A stretch of DNA of 61,626 nucleotides, filler included, from Globobulimina sp. (taxonomy: Eukaryota): NCBI GenBank assembly GCA_003354225.1. It is 24 parts of 24 records of this genome, joined end to end, with 100 filler letters (N's around TTAATTAATTAA, not from the genome) between each part and the next. Parts side by side here need not be neighbours in the genome. Positions count along the whole stretch, not along the records: positions 15,440 to 17,912 come from PIVH01006480.1; 23 more parts are not named here. One strand, 5' to 3'. Of the stretch, positions 798 to 21,306 are shown piece by piece. Within the stretch, counting starts at the first letter, position 1. Each line of letters opens with the position of its first letter. Both the position numbers and the translations under genes were made by a program. Below the pieces are notes generated by a model. The model had not been told where the DNA came from. It saw only the letters and a list, made by a program, of their open reading frames with translations, and searched no databases.

Positions 798-2474
798 TTA
801 AATACGTTTGATTGAAGTCATTGAACTAAATATTTGTTGATCTAAATGCATAAATTCTTTCGTTTGCTTGAATCGCTTAAATGAATCATTCATTAATTTA
901 TACATTTCATAAATACAGTCATCAAATAATGCATATACATCATTGATAACTATTTCTTTATCCATCCAATCATTTAAACCATTCATTGATTTTTTTAATT
1001 TATTTCTTGTATAAGAATCAATATTTATCTCCAAATCACATCCATTTTTATCATAAATATATCTGTTAAATAATGCATATGCCTTCAATTTATAATCAGT
1101 TATAATATTATCCGTATTATGTAACAATGATTCGTCATTTTCATCAATATCTGCATCATTATCCGATACAAACACATTCGTTCTTTGTTGTTTATCATTA
1201 TATTTTACATTCGCAACAATCGACGATAAAGGCACTTTATCCGGGAACTCAAATAATAAAATATGTGATTTATAGTGAACATTACTGTAACTATCATTAA
1301 TTACAATTGATATATCTTTATTTAGCGAAGGTATGCTTTTAATGTCATCGCCTACATTGACGTTATAATTATGTGTTAACATTTGATTTATTAACAATAT
1401 ATGTTCAATATGCTCAGCCTTAAGGTACAGAAACAAGTTACATGTTTGCAAACACTTTGGTTATTTGGTACATTTCCAACATACCTCGAAAACATGTGAA
1501 TTATGTATAATATCATAATTCAAACTGGTTTTCCATTGAACCATTTCAATGAAACATAATAGACATTCTTGAGAGAATTCATATATTAAATGATCCATAA
1601 AAGCATTCAAACCATGATTGTCATTCAATAATTCATGTAACTTTAAATTCGCGCCATTGTCGGAAACCGTTAACGAGCGTTTATAATTTGGCAAACCATC
1701 AGAAAGTGTAACTGATCTCGAAAACGAAAATCCATTCCAATCAGAAACACGTCGATTAAAAATAAATTTATTCAATATCCATCGAGTACAAACATAGACA
1801 AATATGGCGGTGATTATTATTGCAATCCATGAAGATAATAAATTAAATATAAATTCATCAATATTTATTACCAACGCATTTAATAAAGTTCCTATAAAAT
1901 ACCAAATATACAATGTAATGTATGAATAAATAATTATTTTCAGCTCGCAACGAATCCAGAATTTATCTTCAAAATATGGTGTTTTCTGCCAAATTGTATA
2001 CAAAAGCATAAAGGTTAACAGATTCATAACACCATCCAATAATGTTGCAATTCGCTGTGGATATAATTGAATGACAGCCATTAAATGGAAAATAAATGAT
2101 AAAAGGGATGTGATTAAATACAAAAATATACAACATTTAAAGCACCATATTTCGTTTCCAAATGTTTTTTTATTCACCAGAAACCATGCGGTTTTATCAT
2201 GTTTTGGATTGAGTATTTTTTTCCATTTGGAATGGGATGCAGATATTGCAAATTTAATGTCGTAGTAAACCAACCAATATCTCCATACTAAGCACCATAA
2301 AATGCCATAAATTGTAAATGAAAATATTATGTAATGAATTATTGTTAAAATGAACATTTCGCCAAATATTTCCGATGACCATATTAAACCTATTGTTCTC
2401 TCGATGGTCCAGAATATTAATATAAATATAACCAAACAGATAACAGTGGTATCATGTCGTTTATTTCTGTGTTA
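798..2474 (-). CDS. 7TM-RGS protein (multi-pass membrane region plus C-terminal RGS domain), 5' truncated, intron 1419-1484
   Basis: Multiple hydrophobic helices followed by RGS motifs (LLNDNHGLNAFMDHLIYEFSQECLLCFIE ... LFNRYI..LEINIDSYTR ... LFDDCIYEMYKLMNDSFKRFK). A 66-nt phase-0 GT-AG intron joins ORFs 1461..2435 and 798..1451. Confidence 0.85.
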
Positions 2475-2574
2475 NNNNNNNNNNNNNNNNNNNNNNNNNN
2501 NNNNNNNNNNNNNNNNNNTTAATTAATTAANNNNNNNNNNNNNNNNNNNNNNNNNNNNNNNNNNNNNNNNNNNN
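2475..2574. other. Artificial contig-joining spacer (N44-TTAATTAATTAA-N44), first of 23
   Basis: The same 100-nt spacer, with stop codons in all six frames, recurs about every 2.57 kb. Contigs start at 1, 2575, 5148, 7721, 10294, 12867, 15440, 18013, 20585, 23157, 25729, 28301, 30873, 33445, 36017, 38589, 41160, 43731, 46302, 48873, 51444, 54015, 56586 and 59157, and decrease in length from 2474 to 2470. Confidence 0.99.
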
Positions 2575-3521
2575 TCCACTTTTGGTGTGCCAACGGCAAT
2601 GGCCATATCCACTTGAAACGGACACGTGGTTTTTCCAGATTTGGTTAAATTGGATATAAAATTGATAGAGGCATACAAATATTGCACAGTCACTTCCAAT
2701 GAGTCATTGATAAACATCATATTTGTGAATAATAATTTTGGCGTACATCTTTTACCAAAACTAATGACTGCGCCCGTTGCTAACACGCTACACTTCATTT
2801 GGTGTGCTCCCTTGCCCGGCTCTGCTACCATAACTGTCACATTTTTTAACTTCTGGAAATGTCGATGACTGTGGCTCCAATCCGTCTCATTCCACCCTTT
2901 CTCGTCGCCGATATGTTTAACTCGGTCACGCGAATAATCATCGACTAAATGCAATAAATAATCAAACTTATTCTTTTTGGCCACAGCTAATATCTGTAAA
3001 AAAGTGCCATCCGTTGACATTCCCGAATTCCATAAAACCTTTGTTTTTGCAAACAAATTATGTTAAAATGTGCGAAAAAAACAAAAAATCAACAAACCGG
3101 ACATTGCGTTGCATATATTTTTTTAATTTCTTCTAAATCTTTGTCTTTGACCGAAAATAAATCTTGATCAACTTATATAATTTTATTGTTATTTTTTTCA
3201 AGTTATACTATATATATTAAAACAAGAAAAAGATAACACACATTCAGGCAATTTCACTTCAAATGTTACATCTGGATTCTGTTGACATTTTCTTATCAGA
3301 TTAAATATGAATTCAGGTTTGTTTTTAGGTTCACGTTCTGGGTCGAAAGGGAAATCCGCATCAAAATCTATCAAAAGACTATCGCTTGGGTCCACATCCA
3401 ATTCGTCTTTGATTTCATCTTCATCCAAACCATTATCCTCACAGTAATCCGTGAATAAAGAGTCATACTCTTTTCCTAAACTTGCATAATATCTACCTAA
3501 TGCCGCACATATTTGTTCCAT
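2575..3521 (-). CDS. Hypothetical protein, intron-containing, 3' truncated
   Basis: Two same-strand ORFs (3198..3521 and 2575..3056) with AT-rich intron-like sequence between them; acidic N-terminus; no family recognised. Confidence 0.5.
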
Positions 3522-3609
3522 AATATCTACCTAATGCCGACGGGATACAATGGTTCAAAAGTTTTGTGTTTGATGATGGTTTAATTAAAAACAGCTTAAA
3601 AAAATTCAA

Positions 3610-5047
3610 TTAGTTCGTGTTTGTCAAGTCCATGACAGTTATTATTTCTTTCGCACTACAAAAAAATTCAATTGCTTTTGAATACGCTAAATATGATCCT
3701 TTAAATCTTTCGAATAATACAACATATCGTTTATTCTCATCCACCAAATATTGTTTACAAGAAAACAAAACATCTCCGTCGTCTCCGCCGCCATCAAAAC
3801 TAACAAGACATCCAATCGCTGATATTGTAATTTTTGCGCCGGTTCTACGAGCAATACATTCAAATCGAGCAGCAATTTCTGACGGAACTGTATAAGTGAA
3901 AAATTTATGACATGTGCTATTTGCAAATAAATTATCCTTGATGTGATTTGAACATTTTATAAATTCATTTGTTGGATCTAATTCCTTTGCGCGTATTTTG
4001 AATGAAGTTTGATATTTTTCTTGCAAATTTTCTAACTCCTTTTCAATTTTTAAAATGCGTTGTTTTGTGACAATATTAACTCTTTGCTGTATGTATTGCT
4101 TTAGTTCGTTATGATGAATGTGCGAATTATATATTTTACCATTATACCACTTATGCTTTTTAATATCGTTTATATCACATCGATATTCTGCATAAGGATG
4201 CAACATTGCTTCTAATATATTTTTGAACATTTTGTCAAATTGTCTGGTTCTTTCATGTGCTTTCCAGAACAATTTTATTTTCGCAGTACCAGCAGCAATA
4301 TATTTGTCACGGTCTTTTTTATATTTTTGTTTTTCTGCAGCAACGATATATTTCCATCCTTTACTTAATTTATCCCACCACCAATCGGTGTCATTGCGAT
4401 TTTGAAATGGTGGGAAACCAGAATACATCATAAATAATATGATTCCACACGAAAATATATCACATGTATGCCTATATTTGTTACCTTTTACTAATTCAGG
4501 AGACAAATAACCTTTTGTACCGCATGCTGTTTTCAGTTTTTCTATGTCACCATCGCCTGATGCTGATGCTGATGGTGTACGTGGTTGTGGTGCTGGATAA
4601 CTATGGACATTGTTCGCAATTTGTTTCAAATCTCCATTGTATTGAACCACAATCATAGAGGTCCACGGTGTAATAAATTTATATTTCATTGCCAATGACA
4701 ATGCTTCTTTTTCATCCATAACGTTCTCATTCTAATTTTTGCATATTGTCGCAATTTTAAAAATGCCCATATTCTCTCAATGTTATCATTTGTTTGATTT
4801 ACATCAATGTTCAGCACAATACGTTTACAAATTTGTATTGGTTTTGTAATTATGCGCTCATCGGTTTGAATGGCTTTGCCTGTGATCGCTGATACCGTCG
4901 CATTCACACAATATTCACACTGTTTATTGTCATTGTCATCACTGTTTCTGTTTATTTTGCCACAAATAATAATGTCATTTCCTGAATATAATGCATTAAA
5001 CTTAGTATTTGTAAGATTACTAATATTTTGGTCGCAGTCATATTCAA
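3610..5047 (-). pseudogene. ITIH-like (VIT/vWA) C-terminal region joined to a Ser/Thr kinase C-lobe; frameshift near 4725
   Basis: ISNLTNTKFNALYSGNDIIICGKI ... IERIWAFLKL / EALSLAMKYKFITPWTSMIVV (ITIH-type), then LKTACGTKGYLSPE..CDIFSCGIILFMMYSGFPPF..MLHP..RC..I..H.W (kinase subdomains VIII-XI). No GxGxxG, HRD or DFG motif. Confidence 0.65.
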
Positions 5048-5147
5048 NNNNNNNNNNNNNNNNNNNNNNNNNNNNNNNNNNNNNNNNNNNNTTAATTAAT
5101 TAANNNNNNNNNNNNNNNNNNNNNNNNNNNNNNNNNNNNNNNNNNNN

Positions 5148-5853
5148 AAACATTTTATCACGTTATCCAGTGCAATTACAAAAGATATACAGCCAACATC
5201 TTGCCACAACATTTGGTCTCAAACGGTGTGAGACTGGAGTTCATGAATGGATTTTACGTCTGGTTGAATCAAATAATACTCACAGTAATTACAGTGTGGT
5301 GGTCGGAGTTGTAAAAAATAAATTCATTGATGAATGTATTCATAGAAATACCAATTTTAGGCATCCGGGTGGCACCAAAGCTCATTTCAGAATGCCTGTA
5401 GCATTCATGCGCTTTAATGGTGTTGATAGAGGCTATGGATTTGTAGCAAACAAAGCTCGTAAACTGGCTAAATTTAATGAAAATGATCATAAATTATGGA
5501 AATATGGTGAGAGTTTTAAACATTTGAATGATTTGATGCGTGTTATATTGGATATGGATAAGCATACATTGTCATTTGTTATCAATGGAACTGATTATGG
5601 CTCAGCTTTTGATGTGGATGAAAATTGTGAATATCGGTTAGCAGTTTGTATGTTACCTGGAATAACCATTGAACTTTGTGACATGGAGGAAGCACGGATC
5701 CCATGCCAACAAATTGCAGACGATATGCTTAAAAATGATGTGACACAATCAGTTTCTCAAAGGGTTACGTGGAAATCTATAATGATTGTCATCACGTTTC
5801 TTGTTGTGTTAGTTAGTGTTGGTTTTGCTTTTTATCCAGTTGATTTTCAATAA
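5148..5853 (+). CDS. SPRY/B30.2-like domain protein with C-terminal TM anchor, 5' truncated
   Basis: GVHEWILR..VVGV..KYGESF..DLMRVILDMDKHTLSFVINGTDYGSAF..YRLAV; hydrophobic C-terminal tail. Confidence 0.75.
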
Positions 5854-15339: not shown

Positions 15340-15691
15340 NNNNNNNNNNNNNNNNNNNNNNNNNNNNNNNNNNNNNNNNNNNNTTAATTAATTAANNNNN
15401 NNNNNNNNNNNNNNNNNNNNNNNNNNNNNNNNNNNNNNNACCCCTGCATCATGGCTGGAGTCGAAGTGGGCCCGTCCCGCGATCGGGCTCTCGCAGTAGC
15501 TCTCGCAGGTGAAGAACTGGTTGCATCGGTCCAACTCAACGCACGGCTGCGATCAATGGCGAGTGATTCCCGCACGGTAGTTCTGAATGCCAAAGGAACT
15601 CGAACACAGGATGATGATCCTCAGAGAACCAAACCCCATTCCCTAAGGCTCCTCCAAACGGCGGGGCTTCTTGACCAAGAGGAAGAATGAA

Positions 15692-15927
15692 ATGCAATTG
15701 ACACCCAAAGACACACAAGGTACTCGTACTTTCCACTTCCCGCTCGAGCGGGATTCGGATACTCCTCCGGAGATGACCGTCATGATCGAGCTCATGGTCG
15801 AGCCTCGAGCCAATGTATGCCCTCAGTTTCGAGCAGGGGTCGCCTTCTGCTCGCCTGAGGATCAGTTTTCCAAGAAACTTGGGAGACAGATAGCCTTCGG
15901 GCGCATGGTGACCGACAGCTGCTTGGA
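15692..15927 (+). CDS. Small phage-like hypothetical protein (GC-rich fragment), truncated at a junction
   Basis: GC-rich segment 15440-~15927 with a purine-rich RBS-like sequence upstream; motif G.A.CSPEDQFSKKLGRQIAFGR resembles small phage proteins. Confidence 0.5.
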
Positions 15928-16772
15928 AGGAACGAAAGGCAAAGTGTATAAGTCAAGATCCTGCGCTTGAAAATTTTTTGCCATTCGACATAAGTGCCTG
16001 CCCTAAACTGCTTCCCCCAAATACCGAGCTAAGAATAACGCTCCATCATCAGCAAGATGCCTGGCGTTTGCAAACCGAAACTGCTGTCAATGCTCCATAC
16101 AAATTCAAAATCACCAATCCACGACTTGTTGTATGGCGTTATATGTTGAGTAAAGAAAAAATCGAAAATTTTCGTTCATGCTTCTCAATTGAAAGACCAT
16201 TGACATATCAATTTCCTGCTATGGAAGTTTACGGTCCCTACCCTATTGCACCAACTATGGCAACACTTACCCAAAGAATCAGATATGGAAAAAGACCTAT
16301 TTGCATTCATCTGTTTTTTGTGAATGCCGAAGCAGCGACCGGATTTTTCAATACAAATGCATTGTACCTACAAAATTTGTCTATAACCGAATCACAAGCT
16401 ACTTTTGGTTCAAGAACTGTACCAGAACAAGGATTGAAAACAAATTTCAATCCCATAACAAATAATGGAGTACTCGATATTTGTGATGCATACAGAACCT
16501 TTCTACGCAGCCTTGGTTTGTATGGTACTGGACAATCAAGTTTTATGACAGCAGACCATTTTGTCAATGGCTATACTTTCCTTACTTATAAATTTGCACC
16601 AAATTTTTATTCAACAAAATTTCGCCAACCTCAAATAGATTCCTTCGCTGACTTGACTGTTAGCCTTAAAATAGGTGCTCCTCCTACACAAACCATTCAT
16701 ATGTATTGTGCTGTTGTTGAAGACAGGTCATTGATTGTACGTCCTAATAGTACAGCTGAATTGAAAATATGA
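15928..16772 (+). CDS. Polinton-type major capsid protein (double jelly-roll), C-terminal part
   Basis: The frame is open upstream of 15978 (ERKAKCISQ..LPFDI...KLLPPNTELRITL). It shows FKITNPRLVVWR, GKRP..I.LFFV..A..G....N.L, P..G....F, AYRTFL..LG, F.NGYTF..YKFAP and LTVSLKI..P..TI.MY patterns typical of Maverick MCP; protease and ATPase follow. Confidence 0.75.
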
Positions 16773-17362
16773 TACGTGGTTATCAATTGTCTTATATCTG
16801 TAGTAATATTGATTCTAAAATAAAACCTTACTTTCGTGGCTTGTTCAATCCTGACACTACAAAAGATGCACTTGCAATGATTGATCCAAATAAACCTAAC
16901 TTTCTAATTTTCAATACAGACCCTAGTTACAAGGATGGTGCTCACTGGGTTTCGCTATTTGTTGACCTACAAAATAAAAGTTATTTCATCGATTCTTTCG
17001 CCCATCACCCAAACTATTACAATTTAGAAGATTTCTGCACCGAAGCGACAGGGAATGATTTTGAAGTATTGCCCACTGCGCTACAATCTCAATATACAAC
17101 AGTCTGTGGATTGTATACAATATTCTTTGGACATTACCTATGCGATGGTAAAGACTTGGTATCTATTTTGTCGATGTTACAACCAGAAAAAACTAAAGTT
17201 CTGAGAGATAAACATATATTTGAATGGTTTCAAAATCATTTTGGTTCTGAGGTTGAATTGGAAAATTCATTCATAGATTGTAAAAGGTTCGGAAAAGGAA
17301 CAGTGGAAGCACAGAAATGCAAACGTTATAAAGAAATGATTAGTGATCGTAAAGCTATGTAA
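16769..17362 (+). CDS. Adenain-like (clan CE) cysteine maturation protease
   Basis: NTDPSYKDGAHWV (catalytic His), FIDSF (Asp), LQS..TTVCGLY (oxyanion Gln and catalytic Cys). Confidence 0.92.
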   Translation: MIRGYQLSYICSNIDSKIKPYFRGLFNPDTTKDALAMIDPNKPNFLIFNTDPSYKDGAHWVSLFVDLQNKSYFIDSFAHHPNYYNLEDFCTEATGNDFEVLPTALQSQYTTVCGLYTIFFGHYLCDGKDLVSILSMLQPEKTKVLRDKHIFEWFQNHFGSEVELENSFIDCKRFGKGTVEAQKCKRYKEMISDRKAM

Positions 17363-17417
17363 AATGATAATATAAAATAAACATAATTTTGAATTTGTCT
17401 CAGTTGCACTTGTTACA

Positions 17418-17912
17418 ATGTATGAGAAGGTCGAAAAATTTTATCTCTCCTTTCCCAGTTCGGTTCTTGTAGTTGGACCGAGTTGTTCTGGAAAGACAAC
17501 ACTAGTTTCAAAAGCTTTGAAAAATTGGTCAACAAATGTTTGTCCATCAAAACCGAAACTAAAAAGAGTGATAATTTATTATGAAACTTGGCAAAAAATG
17601 TACAGAGATATTCGTGATGAAATTTTACCACATGAATGTGAAGTTTTCTTTTTCCAAGAAGCTCCAAATGAAAAGAACATGGCAGTACTTGGACCACTGG
17701 CAGAAGATGAAGCTCAAGTGGTTATTGTAGATGACTTGCAAACTAAACTTGGTCATAAAGACGGTTGCATAGAAAAACTATTTACAATCACCAGCCACCA
17801 TGCCTGCAATGGTGCTGGAGCTCAATGTTGGTTTGTAGCTCAAGATTTACAAGCTGGCGGAGATTCGATGAGAACTATAAGAAAAAATGCAACCTACATG
17901 TTGCTTATGCCA
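17418..17912 (+). CDS. FtsK/A32-like packaging ATPase, 3' truncated
   Basis: VLVVGPSCSGKTT (Walker A), IIYY..WQ..Y, VVIVDD (Walker B), LFT..SHH, Q, RTIRKNATY, the Maverick ATPase pattern. Confidence 0.92.
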
Positions 17913-20584: not shown

Positions 20585-20996
20585 GGTTTCTATACAAATG
20601 TTTGTTCATTAAATAAACATGCATCCATTCTTGATCTGGGTCTAGTTTATGTCCTTTTTGGCAACCAGAAGTGCATTTGCCAGCGTTAGCACACCTAGAA
20701 AGATCTATTACCATAACAAATTTTCTTCCTGGTATCCCTTTTCGTGCTTCTTCACCTACTGCAGGCTCGCATGGGGTGATTGGACAAAGTTTAGATTTCT
20801 CCACTTCCACAATTTCACCATTTGTTGTAAGGAGTTTAACTTTTTCAGTGCTCTCTTCATTTGTCACTTCTTGTGCCTTTGATGTTGAACAAGAAGATAA
20901 TACTCCACTACCAATAACTGTACTGGCGCCAATTGCAAATCCAGACTTTAGGAATTTCCTACGTGAGCTTTCCTTATTCTTTTCGTCCTTTGTCAT
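20585..20996 (-). CDS. Bacterial Tat-exported 4Fe-4S protein (NrfC/DsrO-like molybdopterin oxidoreductase Fe-S subunit), N-terminal fragment
   Basis: Tat motif SRRKFLK, then GIPGRKFVMVIDLSRCANAGKCTSGC. Confidence 0.85.
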
Positions 20997-21306
20997 AAGA
21001 ATTTTGATACCGACGCAATACATTTATTGGTGGTTTGTATTTTTTTTTGTCGTTGTATAATGCTGGAATTGTTTAATTATTTGAAACAACTCTAGATCTG
21101 TTTTTTGAACGATCATAAAACAAAATAGTGCAAATACAAAACAACGAACAAATCAATACGTTTAATTATGTCCAAGCTGTTTTAAATCTAACCATTTTTT
21201 GAGAGTTGTAGATGCTTTTAATATATGCAGTGAATAACAAAGAGATGGTATTATATTATAAAAATTAGAAACAAGTCAAACAACAAAGTTATGCGATGGA
21301 AACAAG

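Follow-up and report, generated by a model that had tools for sequence, protein, structure and literature searches.

Which kind of virus or mobile element left three abutting genes, read at first sight as those for a capsid, a protease, and a packaging ATPase, on a short contig from a sequencing project registered as foraminiferan? Viruses of the Polinton type rank with the most abundant mobile DNA viruses that eukaryotes carry, yet how widely they occur beyond animals and a handful of protist groups is still being mapped out. The window, meaning the whole stretch of 61,626 nucleotides that we analyzed (Globobulimina sp., assembly GCA_003354225.1), consists of 24 unrelated contigs of 2470 to 2474 bp (~2.47 kb) each, with N44-TTAATTAATTAA-N44 spacers between them.

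Contig layout and gene content

The viral finding is confined to one contig (15440 to 17912), whose features are as follows.

15440..15911, no strand: GC-rich DNA (55.5% GC), without similarity to the viral relatives
15912..16772, + strand: predicted major capsid protein gene, 5'-truncated, 286 codons; 90% identity to residues 156-440 of P0001
16769..17362, + strand: clan CE (adenain/Ulp1-like) cysteine protease, complete, 197 aa; matches in Pfam, a PDB profile search, and L003
17363..17417, + strand: AT-rich spacer of 55 nt, read from the sequence
17418..17912, + strand: first 165 codons of a predicted A32/IVa2-type P-loop packaging ATPase; relatives of 235-239 aa, and the ATPase of L003

All three frames are co-oriented on the + strand and free of internal stops, as the first-pass annotation of this DNA had stated. 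The capsid stop (16770-16772) and the protease ATG (16769) overlap by 4 nt (ATGA), and the ATPase frame, which starts with the ATG at 17418, is still open at the contig end at 17912, covering 165 of ~237 codons (the N-terminal ~70%). No conserved or shared motif was found in the spacer between protease and ATPase. The gene order in the clade to which these genes belong is small basic protein, capsid, protease, ATPase. Contigs of the same sizes (5651, 7843, 4551, and 10720 bp) recur among the relatives of the three genes, which indicates that the three genes share contigs. Chance open reading frames (ORFs) were ruled out by relatives at E values down to 1e-175.

The third-position GC content (GC3) of the viral genes is 0.26-0.28, against a mean of 0.30 +/- 0.11 for 14 Pfam-supported eukaryotic ORFs of the window, and viral codon use correlates with that of the window's AT-rich eukaryotic ORFs (RSCU r = 0.60). 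Searched with the clade's proteins, the window's remaining 23 contigs gave no match. Within the contig, repeats amounted to short chance-level pairs, and an Rfam scan of the whole window returned 0 matches. Scans against PHROGs and NCBIfam yielded nothing of use. Two related contigs, L001 (2284 bp) and L002 (4551 bp), add just three small ORFs (98, 98, and 181 aa), which gave no Pfam match at the cut-off (best E 0.011) and had none in L003.

The capsid protein

The capsid frame is open from 15912 to its stop and represents the C-terminal ~65% of a protein of 432-440 aa, approximately residues 155-440, which cover the last part of the first jelly roll and all of the second. A word-indexed protein search found six relatives at 57-90% identity, with E values down to 5e-175. 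The fold was modeled with AlphaFold2 on P0001, a full-length relative that shares 90% identity with the 286 residues in the window, from a 94-sequence alignment (pLDDT 91.4, pTM 0.90). Across residues 9-440, the model aligns with double jelly-roll capsid proteins. The best solved match by VIA-align was the PBCV-1 capsid (Z 27.0, rmsd 3.3, 349 aligned), followed by those of Faustovirus (25.5), ASFV (p72, 23.2), SGIV (23.1), Sputnik (22.4), mavirus (21.2), and adenovirus (hexon, 19.1). Foldseek gave 264 PDB matches at E<=0.001, with SGIV capsid best (4.6e-18) and PBCV-1 (7e-16) and mavirus (6e-15) among the others. In BFVD, 131 matches at E<=0.001 included a bracovirus-borne protein (8.7e-21), an Adintovirus capsid protein (7e-17), adomavirus LO7, and virophage and NCLDV capsids, and identity to the named capsids was <=15%. 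As modeled, and with high model confidence, the capsid family is therefore a double jelly-roll major capsid protein, the outcome on which the first-pass reading had been made to depend.

Sequence-based searches returned much less. A Pfam scan of P0001 found nothing, and a PDB sequence search with the capsid profile gave nothing meaningful (top match a beta-lactamase, E 0.42). A profile search at E<=1e-3 collected a wide capsid family of 733 representative proteins, mostly of 430-460 aa; among its 94 aligned members, the Pfam DJR-like_dom was matched in 3 and the virophage Pfam capsid domain in none. Scans with the capsid alignment found no relative in IMG/VR and nothing in a prokaryote genome collection. 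One of the best 30 language-model look-alike clusters of the capsid carries Sputnik capsid domains.

The protease and the ATPase

The protease has seven relatives at 55-81% identity by word-indexed search and is conserved in every copy of the clade that we examined. The adenain catalytic set H-D-Q-C reported in the first-pass annotation proved sound, with H59, D75, Q106, and C113 unchanged in 8/8 sequences. In Pfam, the window protease falls just below the cut-offs for Peptidase_C5 (E 4.3e-4, 20.4 bits; cut-off 21.3) and C48 (E 1.4e-3, 19.0 bits; cut-off 20.7). C48 was matched in 7/8 family members and C5 in 6/8, the best reaching E values of 5e-5 and 6.8e-5. A PDB profile search matched ASFV S273R (2.4e-4) and SENP8 (3e-3), the latter with the catalytic H, D, Q, and C aligned. 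We presume that this 197-aa protein is the capsid maturation protease, of the adenain/Ulp1-like clan CE.

Five ATPase relatives of 235-239 aa were found by word-indexed search at 70-90% identity. The Walker A and B motifs noted at first hold throughout, since G20, G25, and K26 of Walker A (G20-T27) and D105 and D106 of Walker B are invariant in 6/6 sequences. A direct Pfam scan for Pox_A32 (PF04665) matched 0/6 family ATPases, even at E<=10; the ATPase profile gave generic P-loop matches only among PDB sequences; and a scan of IMG/VR with the ATPase alignment found no relative. An AlphaFold2 model from the 6-sequence alignment was too poor for a structure search (pLDDT 42.6). The language-model look-alikes are mostly eukaryote-derived Pox_A32 clusters. 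Judged by its sequence relationship to the ATPase of the element described next, the protein is homologous to A32/IVa2-type packaging ATPases.

Relationship to an integrase-encoding element

Genome-level comparison covered one distant relative, L003, an IMG/VR contig of 12,321 bp (12.3 kb) with terminal inverted repeats (TIRs). Three nearly contiguous arm pairs of 135, 30, and 71 nt make up these repeats; the arms are 94-97% complementary and lie no more than ~265 nt from the contig ends. L003 encodes an integrase with rve and chromodomain matches (2e-10), a protease scoring 22.0 bits for Peptidase_C5, and an ATPase that exceeds the Pfam cut-offs for both Pox_A32 (24.6 bits) and Adeno_IVa2 (26.2 bits), as well as a 1146-aa ORF, a possible polymerase, without a Pfam or PDB sequence match. 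The window protease matches that of L003 by BLASTP at 3e-17 with 31% identity (family hhalign 98.7%, E 2.2e-16). For the ATPase, the window sequence alone gave a BLASTP E value of 8e-10 at 23% identity, and the family hhalign gave 97.8%, E 6.9e-13, over 193 columns. The L003 capsid protein belongs to the same wide family as that of the window; the comparison of the window's capsid family with it gives hhalign 67%, E 5e-5, and ~19% identity, which is weak on its own.

Because the capsid fold is joined by protease and ATPase homology to L003, an element bounded by TIRs and carrying an rve integrase, we consider it highly probable that 15912-17912 holds part of a virion-morphogenesis module that belonged to a small dsDNA virus of eukaryotes, of the Polinton/Maverick kind (Polisuviricotina, most likely Polintoviricetes-related). 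Three features of Polinton membership were found, namely, a double jelly-roll capsid (modeled on P0001), an adenain-like protease, and an A32-like packaging ATPase. The polintovirus reading of the first-pass annotation is supported for the virion module and its homology to L003 and unproven in the strict sense, since no polymerase (pPolB), integrase, penton, or terminal repeats were found on the window contig (2 kb of viral DNA), L001, or L002.

Two other origins have to be weighed against this one. It is unlikely that the module came from a virophage or from another Polinton-like class (Aquintoviricetes), even though virophages carry this set of four core genes, the capsid model fits Sputnik (22.4) and mavirus (21.2), Sputnik capsid domains occur in one of the 30 top-ranked look-alike clusters, and no integrase or polymerase was seen for the clade. 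NCLDV-type capsids score best (Z 27.0-23.1), above the virophage ones, and the capsid length of 440 aa is like that of the 430-460-aa wide family, one member of which lies in the element with rve integrase and TIRs. The protease and ATPase identities to L003 (31% and 23%) and the mostly eukaryote-derived Pox_A32 clusters around the ATPase point the same way. So does the presence of a cysteine protease, which, in the available excerpts of one study (10.64898/2026.06.19.733378), is core among PLV groups only in Maverick-Polintons and Gosseviruses; the same excerpts assign Aquintoviricetes a core of capsid, penton, and A32 ATPase, from which a cysteine protease is usually missing. An ordinary animal Maverick, from animal or other prey or a contaminant rather than from the protist, is very unlikely. 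The dataset is mixed, its contigs are unlinked, at least the GC-rich piece is foreign, and nematode and arthropod entries occur among the language-model look-alike clusters. However, the genes are not close to any named animal Maverick, in keeping with the divergence assumed in the first-pass annotation: identity is <=15% to named viral capsids and <=24% to any of the other 90 aligned database representatives. The GC3 and codon use fit the window's AT-rich eukaryotic ORFs, and the clade is also present in a second organism and study.

A distinct clade and its copies

In a capsid tree without named reference sequences, the window copy, L001, L002, and P0001, P0003, P0004, and P0005 form one clade (SH-aLRT 100) on a stem of 0.84 substitutions per site, compared with a median inner branch of 0.09. 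Scans of IMG/VR with the capsid, the ATPase, P0022, and the pair A8 found no close relatives of the clade. The lineage is a distinct, isolated, sparsely sampled small clade of a well-known virus group; it stands out by its capsid distance from other representatives and its presence in at least two organisms or studies.

Among Logan contigs, sequencing run X1 has 35 on the viral stretch: 6 at >=99% identity, 8 at 95-99%, 10 at 90-95%, and 11 at <90%. Run X3, from the second organism and study, has eight contigs of the clade, seven of them at <90% identity. Run X4 contributed none, and no RNA run was listed among those carrying the sequence. Comparison of the window copy with L001 and L002 gave dN/dS values of 0.08-0.19 for all three genes, and, as judged from these sequences, the clade's genes evolve under purifying selection.

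The 5' junction

The module had been described at first as intact-looking, a description that we withdraw. The capsid gene is cut at 15912, where ~155 N-terminal residues are missing and 472 bp of unrelated DNA is joined, and the ATPase lacks ~72 C-terminal residues because the contig ends first. With its capsid gene truncated in this way, the window copy, as read from its sequence, cannot make a capsid protein. GC content is 55.5% in 15440-15911 and 36.4% in 15912-17912, versus 28.7-40.8% across the 24 whole contigs; the compositional step is sharp (within ~50 bp), and nucleotide and protein similarity to relatives begins at 15911-15915. Pfam, PHROGs, and NCBIfam gave nothing significant for the ORFs of 15440-15911 (best E 0.086), and neither did phages or plasmids. 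Fusion of the GC-rich ORF to the capsid gene was considered and rejected, as the frames differ and that ORF stops at 15970.

Contigs of the individual sequencing runs bear on how the join arose. One contig of run X2, 244 nt long, is an exact match to 15689-15932 and reaches ~20 nt past the breakpoint. None cover 15440-15688 or 15933-15965, and none bridge the junction by a 31-letter rule. Coverage of the two sides came from separate runs of a single sample, that of the GC-rich one only from X2 (depth 2.8) and that of the viral one only from X1 (~7). X1 contigs upstream of 15948 carry on as normal capsid sequence, and X1 also has loose ends inside genes at 16712, 16857, 16877, and 16931, where copies run into unlike sequence.

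We put at only slightly under an even chance the explanation that the junction arose artificially, from a chimeric read, amplification, or assembly, with the viral part derived from a free or episomal virus in the sample. The sharp step in composition suggests this, as do the separation of the GC-rich part (X2 only) from the viral part (X1 only), the intact capsid gene of the related contig L001, the normal capsid sequence of X1 upstream of 15948, and purifying selection on the genes. Against it, the run split is weak, as contigs show presence and not absence; the X2 contig enters the viral side by ~20 nt; and no complete genome or terminal repeat was seen for the clade. That the junction is real, marking a 5'-truncated endogenous insertion or rearranged remnant in an AT-rich protist genome, one of many copies, is plausible at well below an even chance. 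The X2 contig that passes the breakpoint favors a real junction, and one sample holds many diverged copies. L002 is also 5'-truncated, at a different codon (~residue 112), and is flanked by ~215 bp of non-coding DNA with 28.5% GC and, on the 3' side, by 1.2 kb without long ORFs. The loose ends inside genes in X1 would fit as well, but they could equally be amplification chimeras. The flank of the window copy, at 55.5% GC, is unlike all 24 window contigs; no contig bridges the junction, whose sides come from different runs; and the low dN/dS argues that copies diverged as working genes and not as decaying inserts. The window contig is, in sum, short and possibly chimeric, and it comes from an AT-rich protist dataset.

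Proposed function and significance

By analogy with their families, the three proteins would act together in particle formation. Trimers of the ~440-aa double jelly-roll protein would be the pseudo-hexagonal capsomers from which an icosahedral shell is built; a linear dsDNA genome would be pumped into that shell by the A32/IVa2-type ATPase, and maturation would involve cleavage of capsid or core precursors by the adenain-like cysteine protease. Many diverged copies of the lineage are present within one sample, under purifying selection. The window fragment itself is too short and damaged to teach a new mechanism.

We speculate further, as a possibility that we hold to be doubtful, that the clade is an undescribed, protease-encoding lineage related to Mavericks/Polintons, tied to foraminifera or related AT-rich protists, currently active, and repeatedly inserting into or recombining with host DNA. 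On that reading, current activity would be indicated by purifying selection, by copies that are intact, by the dozens of variants in a sample, and by occurrence in two organisms. If true, no earlier small dsDNA virus lineage would have been linked to these hosts, and the clade would be a deep branch lying between the Mavericks of animals and the protist Gossevirus and PaM1 groups. Full-text literature searches that paired foraminifera with polinton and Reticulomyxa with Maverick returned no paper on the subject; a tie to the host would add a virus lineage to a protist group for which we found no small DNA viruses described.

Comparison with known virus groups

The virophages Sputnik and mavirus share the fold (Z 22.4 and 21.2) and the core morphogenesis genes with the window module. 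They differ in the length of their solved capsid chains (503-515 residues versus 440), in an identity of 10-12%, and in Z scores below those of NCLDV capsids. Adenoviruses have the same three functions in hexon, adenain, and IVa2. Their hexons align with the capsid model at Z 16-19, the protease finds its best Pfam match in Peptidase_C5, and the L003 ATPase matches Adeno_IVa2; however, the hexon is about twice as long (884-950 residues), and sequence similarity is marginal.

Among protist-linked groups, PaM1-type capsids are described as abundant in Rhizaria in the portions available of three sources (PMC10120064, 10.64898/2026.06.19.733378, and 10.64898/2026.10.13.758929). The first-pass remark that such elements are poorly described in Rhizaria holds in part, but excerpts of PMC10120064 count 3,251 capsid genes in one rhizarian, Paulinella micropora. 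Gossevirus/GKS1 and PaM1 of Rhizaria and Amoebozoa resemble the window clade, as far as the excerpted accounts go, in being protist-linked small dsDNA viruses with a core of capsid, ATPase, and cysteine protease. Gossevirus capsids are most like Sputnik in the same excerpts (PMC10120064), whereas the window-clade capsid is nearest NCLDV; these groups are compared by description only.

The closest counterpart is the Maverick/Polinton type as represented by L003. The window ATPase follows the protease, whereas the L003 ATPase lies upstream beside the large ORF; the rve integrase and TIRs of L003 have no counterpart on the clade's window contig, L001, or L002; and the clade sits on a long stem. 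The two are alike in combining a double jelly-roll capsid of the wide family, an adenain-type protease, and an A32/IVa2-type ATPase, and in both the protease gene comes directly after the capsid gene.

Results

The window consists of 24 short contigs from one assembly (2,470 to 2,474 bp each, in descending order of size), joined by spacers of the form N44-TTAATTAATTAA-N44. Because these unlinked contigs are laid end to end, adjoining genes in the window provide no genomic context for one another. A capsid-protease-ATPase gene trio is confined to a single contig (15440-17912), on which we distinguished the following features.

15536-15952 (-), ORF of 138 aa in the GC-rich 5' piece
15647-15970 (+), ORF of 107 aa in the GC-rich 5' piece, overlapping the former
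15912-16772 including stop (+), 5'-cut capsid frame, open, 286 codons
16769-17362 (+), protease ORF, 197 aa
AT-rich spacer of 55 bases between protease and ATPase
from 17418 (+), ATPase ORF of 165 codons, without a stop before the contig ends

Among 48 longer ORFs from the window's other contigs, 19 had Pfam matches at an E value of ≤1e-5. These were to ordinary cellular, mostly eukaryote-typical families (RCC1, annexin, protein kinases, TTC21, diphthamide synthase, MFS, TLC, and others), with no viral families among them, and the module family's proteins matched nothing in the rest of the window. One ORF of bacterial appearance (20585-21023, minus strand), at the start of another contig, has an N-terminal twin-arginine-like signal (RRKFLKSG...) and cysteine-rich motifs; it had no Pfam match at E ≤1e-5, and its contig also bears AT-rich, low-complexity, eukaryote-like ORFs.

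Public data yielded close relatives of the capsid (6 proteins, 57 to 90% identity), the protease (7 proteins, 55 to 81%), and the ATPase (5 proteins, 70 to 90%). The same largest-contig sizes recur across the three lists, which indicates that the trio travels together. One related contig, L001 (2,284 bp), encodes a 98-aa basic protein, a 440-aa capsid protein, and the protease, in that order; another, L002 (4,551 bp), carries a cut capsid gene, the protease, a 237-aa ATPase, and ORFs of 98 and 181 aa, followed by 1.2 kb without long ORFs. In all three copies the stop codon of the capsid gene and the start codon of the protease gene share an ATGA (window 16769-16772, L001 1686-1689, L002 1202-1205), a compact, possibly coupled arrangement that is unusual among nuclear eukaryotic genes. 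Within the module, variation is greatest in the protease tail and the spacer.

Several further features of these copies were observed. In one contig from sequencing run X1, 128 other letters replace 138 nt of the protease C terminus and spacer (window 17233-17372). The 98-aa ORF of L001 (78-374), directly 5' of the capsid gene, has a strongly basic, lysine-rich C-terminal half; it had no family match and could be a DNA-binding core protein. Beyond its last viral ORF, L002 (3378-4551) contains a 48-bp unit present twice (4043-4136) and diverged direct repeats (3653-3890), and could represent an element terminus or host DNA.

The window capsid had no match in Pfam or in a PDB sequence search. 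A profile of its close family retrieved 733 representative proteins at E ≤1e-3 and 112 at ≤1e-10, mostly of 430 to 460 aa; among 94 aligned members, Pfam detected DJR-like_dom in three and Capsid_N in one. We modeled P0001, a full-length 440-aa relative 90% identical to the window piece, with AlphaFold2 from the 94-member alignment (pLDDT 91.4, pTM 0.90). Foldseek matched the model to PDB capsids of SGIV (4.6e-18), PBCV-1 (7e-16), mavirus (6e-15), and Sputnik (1.6e-14). VIA-align matches, which span residues 9 to 440, gave Z scores of 27.0 for PBCV-1, 25.5 for Faustovirus, 23.2 for ASFV p72, and 23.1 for SGIV, all NCLDV-type, and of 22.8 for vaccinia D13, 22.4 for Sputnik, 21.2 for mavirus, and 19.1 for adenovirus hexon. 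In BFVD the matches were a bracovirus-borne protein and capsids of adintovirus, adomavirus, virophage, and NCLDV origin, none above 15% identity. The predicted fold is thus a double jelly roll, the absence of which the first-pass annotation had named as grounds for abandoning its reading. The window piece itself is without most of the first jelly roll.

All eight protease sequences compared share H59, D75, Q106, and C113. The window protein falls narrowly below Pfam cutoffs (Peptidase_C5, 20.4 versus 21.3 bits; C48, 19.0 versus 20.7), with C48 detected in 7/8 and C5 in 6/8 of the family. The family profile matched ASFV protease S273R (2.4e-4) and SENP8 (3e-3); the family's His, Asp, Gln, and Cys align with SENP8 positions that we take to be its catalytic residues.

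Walker A and Walker B are invariant in the ATPase family. Pfam reported generic P-loop families alone, with PF04665 (Pox_A32) matching none of six members, and structure prediction was poor (pLDDT 42.6). Pox_A32 clusters ranked top in a language-model atlas, where the commonest family set accounted for 25 of the 30 best matches (score, 0.98); we treat this affinity as a lead.

Searching with an alignment of two distant capsid relatives led to L003, an IMG/VR contig of 12,321 bp that is apparently a complete 12.3-kb element. Its very ends bear inverted repeats, made up of three nearly contiguous pairs of arms (94 to 97% complementary) in the outermost ~265 nt on either side. It encodes an integrase with rve and chromodomain, an ATPase exceeding the Pfam cutoffs for both Pox_A32 and Adeno_IVa2, and a wide-family capsid gene followed at once by a Peptidase_C5 protease. 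A 1,146-aa ORF (2118-5558) that matched nothing in Pfam or among PDB sequences is presumed to be the replicase. Family profiles compared by hhalign matched L003 for the protease (98.7%, E = 2.2e-16), the ATPase (97.8%, E = 6.9e-13, 193 columns), and the capsid (67%, E = 5e-5), and BLASTP with the window sequence alone matched its protease (3e-17) and ATPase (8e-10). By sequence comparison with this one distant relative, therefore, each gene of the window's trio has a homolog in an element that shows Maverick/Polinton hallmarks. Together with the close relatives of all three genes, this upholds the first-pass annotation's gene trio and family assignment; placement of the module at the class level is probable, not proven.

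Discussion

The window copy, which had been called intact-looking, is a truncated fragment, and the short contig that carries it may be chimeric. Full-length capsid relatives have 432 to 440 aa, of which the window covers residues 156 to 440 alone, and the contig runs out ~72 residues short of the ATPase C terminus. At the nucleotide level, the match to L001 (87%) and to L002 (73%) starts at 15911-15914. The 472 bp upstream have 55.5% GC, versus 36.4% in the viral part and 28.7 to 40.8% across all 24 contigs. This piece has a GC3 of 0.64 and overlapping opposite-strand ORFs, which are in different frames from the capsid gene; they had no significant match in Pfam, PHROGs, or NCBIfam (best E, 0.086) and none in phages or plasmids.

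The junction could mark one of many rearranged or inserted copies or an amplification chimera, and the sequencing runs fit either. Exact-match contigs in X1 tile 15966-17773 in pieces, and other X1 copies continue into ordinary capsid sequence upstream of 15948. The GC-rich side (15689-15932) has an exact match in X2 alone, a different run on the X1 sample, where the contig extends ~20 nt beyond the breakpoint; a bridging call needs 31 letters. The L002 capsid gene is also cut, at another codon and with AT-rich flanks, and X1 contains several loose ends inside the genes. This coverage pattern, the cut in L002, and the loose ends are compatible with both explanations.

A tree of 97 capsid proteins united the window, L001, L002, and four close relatives (P0001, P0003, P0004, and P0005) in one clade (SH-aLRT, 100) on a stem of 0.84 substitutions per site, versus a median inner branch of 0.09. 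No other aligned member exceeds 24% capsid identity to this clade, whose pairing with a sister group is weakly supported (75) and joins long branches. Between copies, dN/dS is 0.08 to 0.19 in all three genes (dS, 0.36 to 1.9), indicating that they diverged as working genes. X1, the run with most of the stretch, has 35 contigs on it, with identities from 99+% down to <90%; X3, from another organism and study, has eight over all three genes, seven of them <90%. The module's GC3 (0.26 to 0.28) and codon use (RSCU r = 0.60) match the window's AT-rich eukaryotic ORFs, which hints that it may reside in the organism those ORFs come from.

In excerpts, a recent preprint (10.64898/2026.06.19.733378) equates Maverick-Polintons with adintoviruses and Polintoviricetes. 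The same excerpts describe the protease as missing from most Polinton-like viruses, with Gosseviruses, which are protist viruses, the sole major group of these to have it as a core gene, shared with group 1 Maverick-Polintons. The first-pass annotation held such elements to be poorly described in Rhizaria. Searches of article full text turned up no description of polintons for foraminifera or of Mavericks for Reticulomyxa. Excerpts of two further sources (preprint 10.64898/2026.10.13.758929; PMC10120064) report PaM1-type capsids, near Polintoviricetes, as abundant in Rhizaria and Amoebozoa, and count 3,251 genes for capsids in Paulinella micropora; on these accounts, this kind of virus is well known, Rhizaria included. 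Possible novelty lies in this one clade and, subject to confirmation, in its host group.
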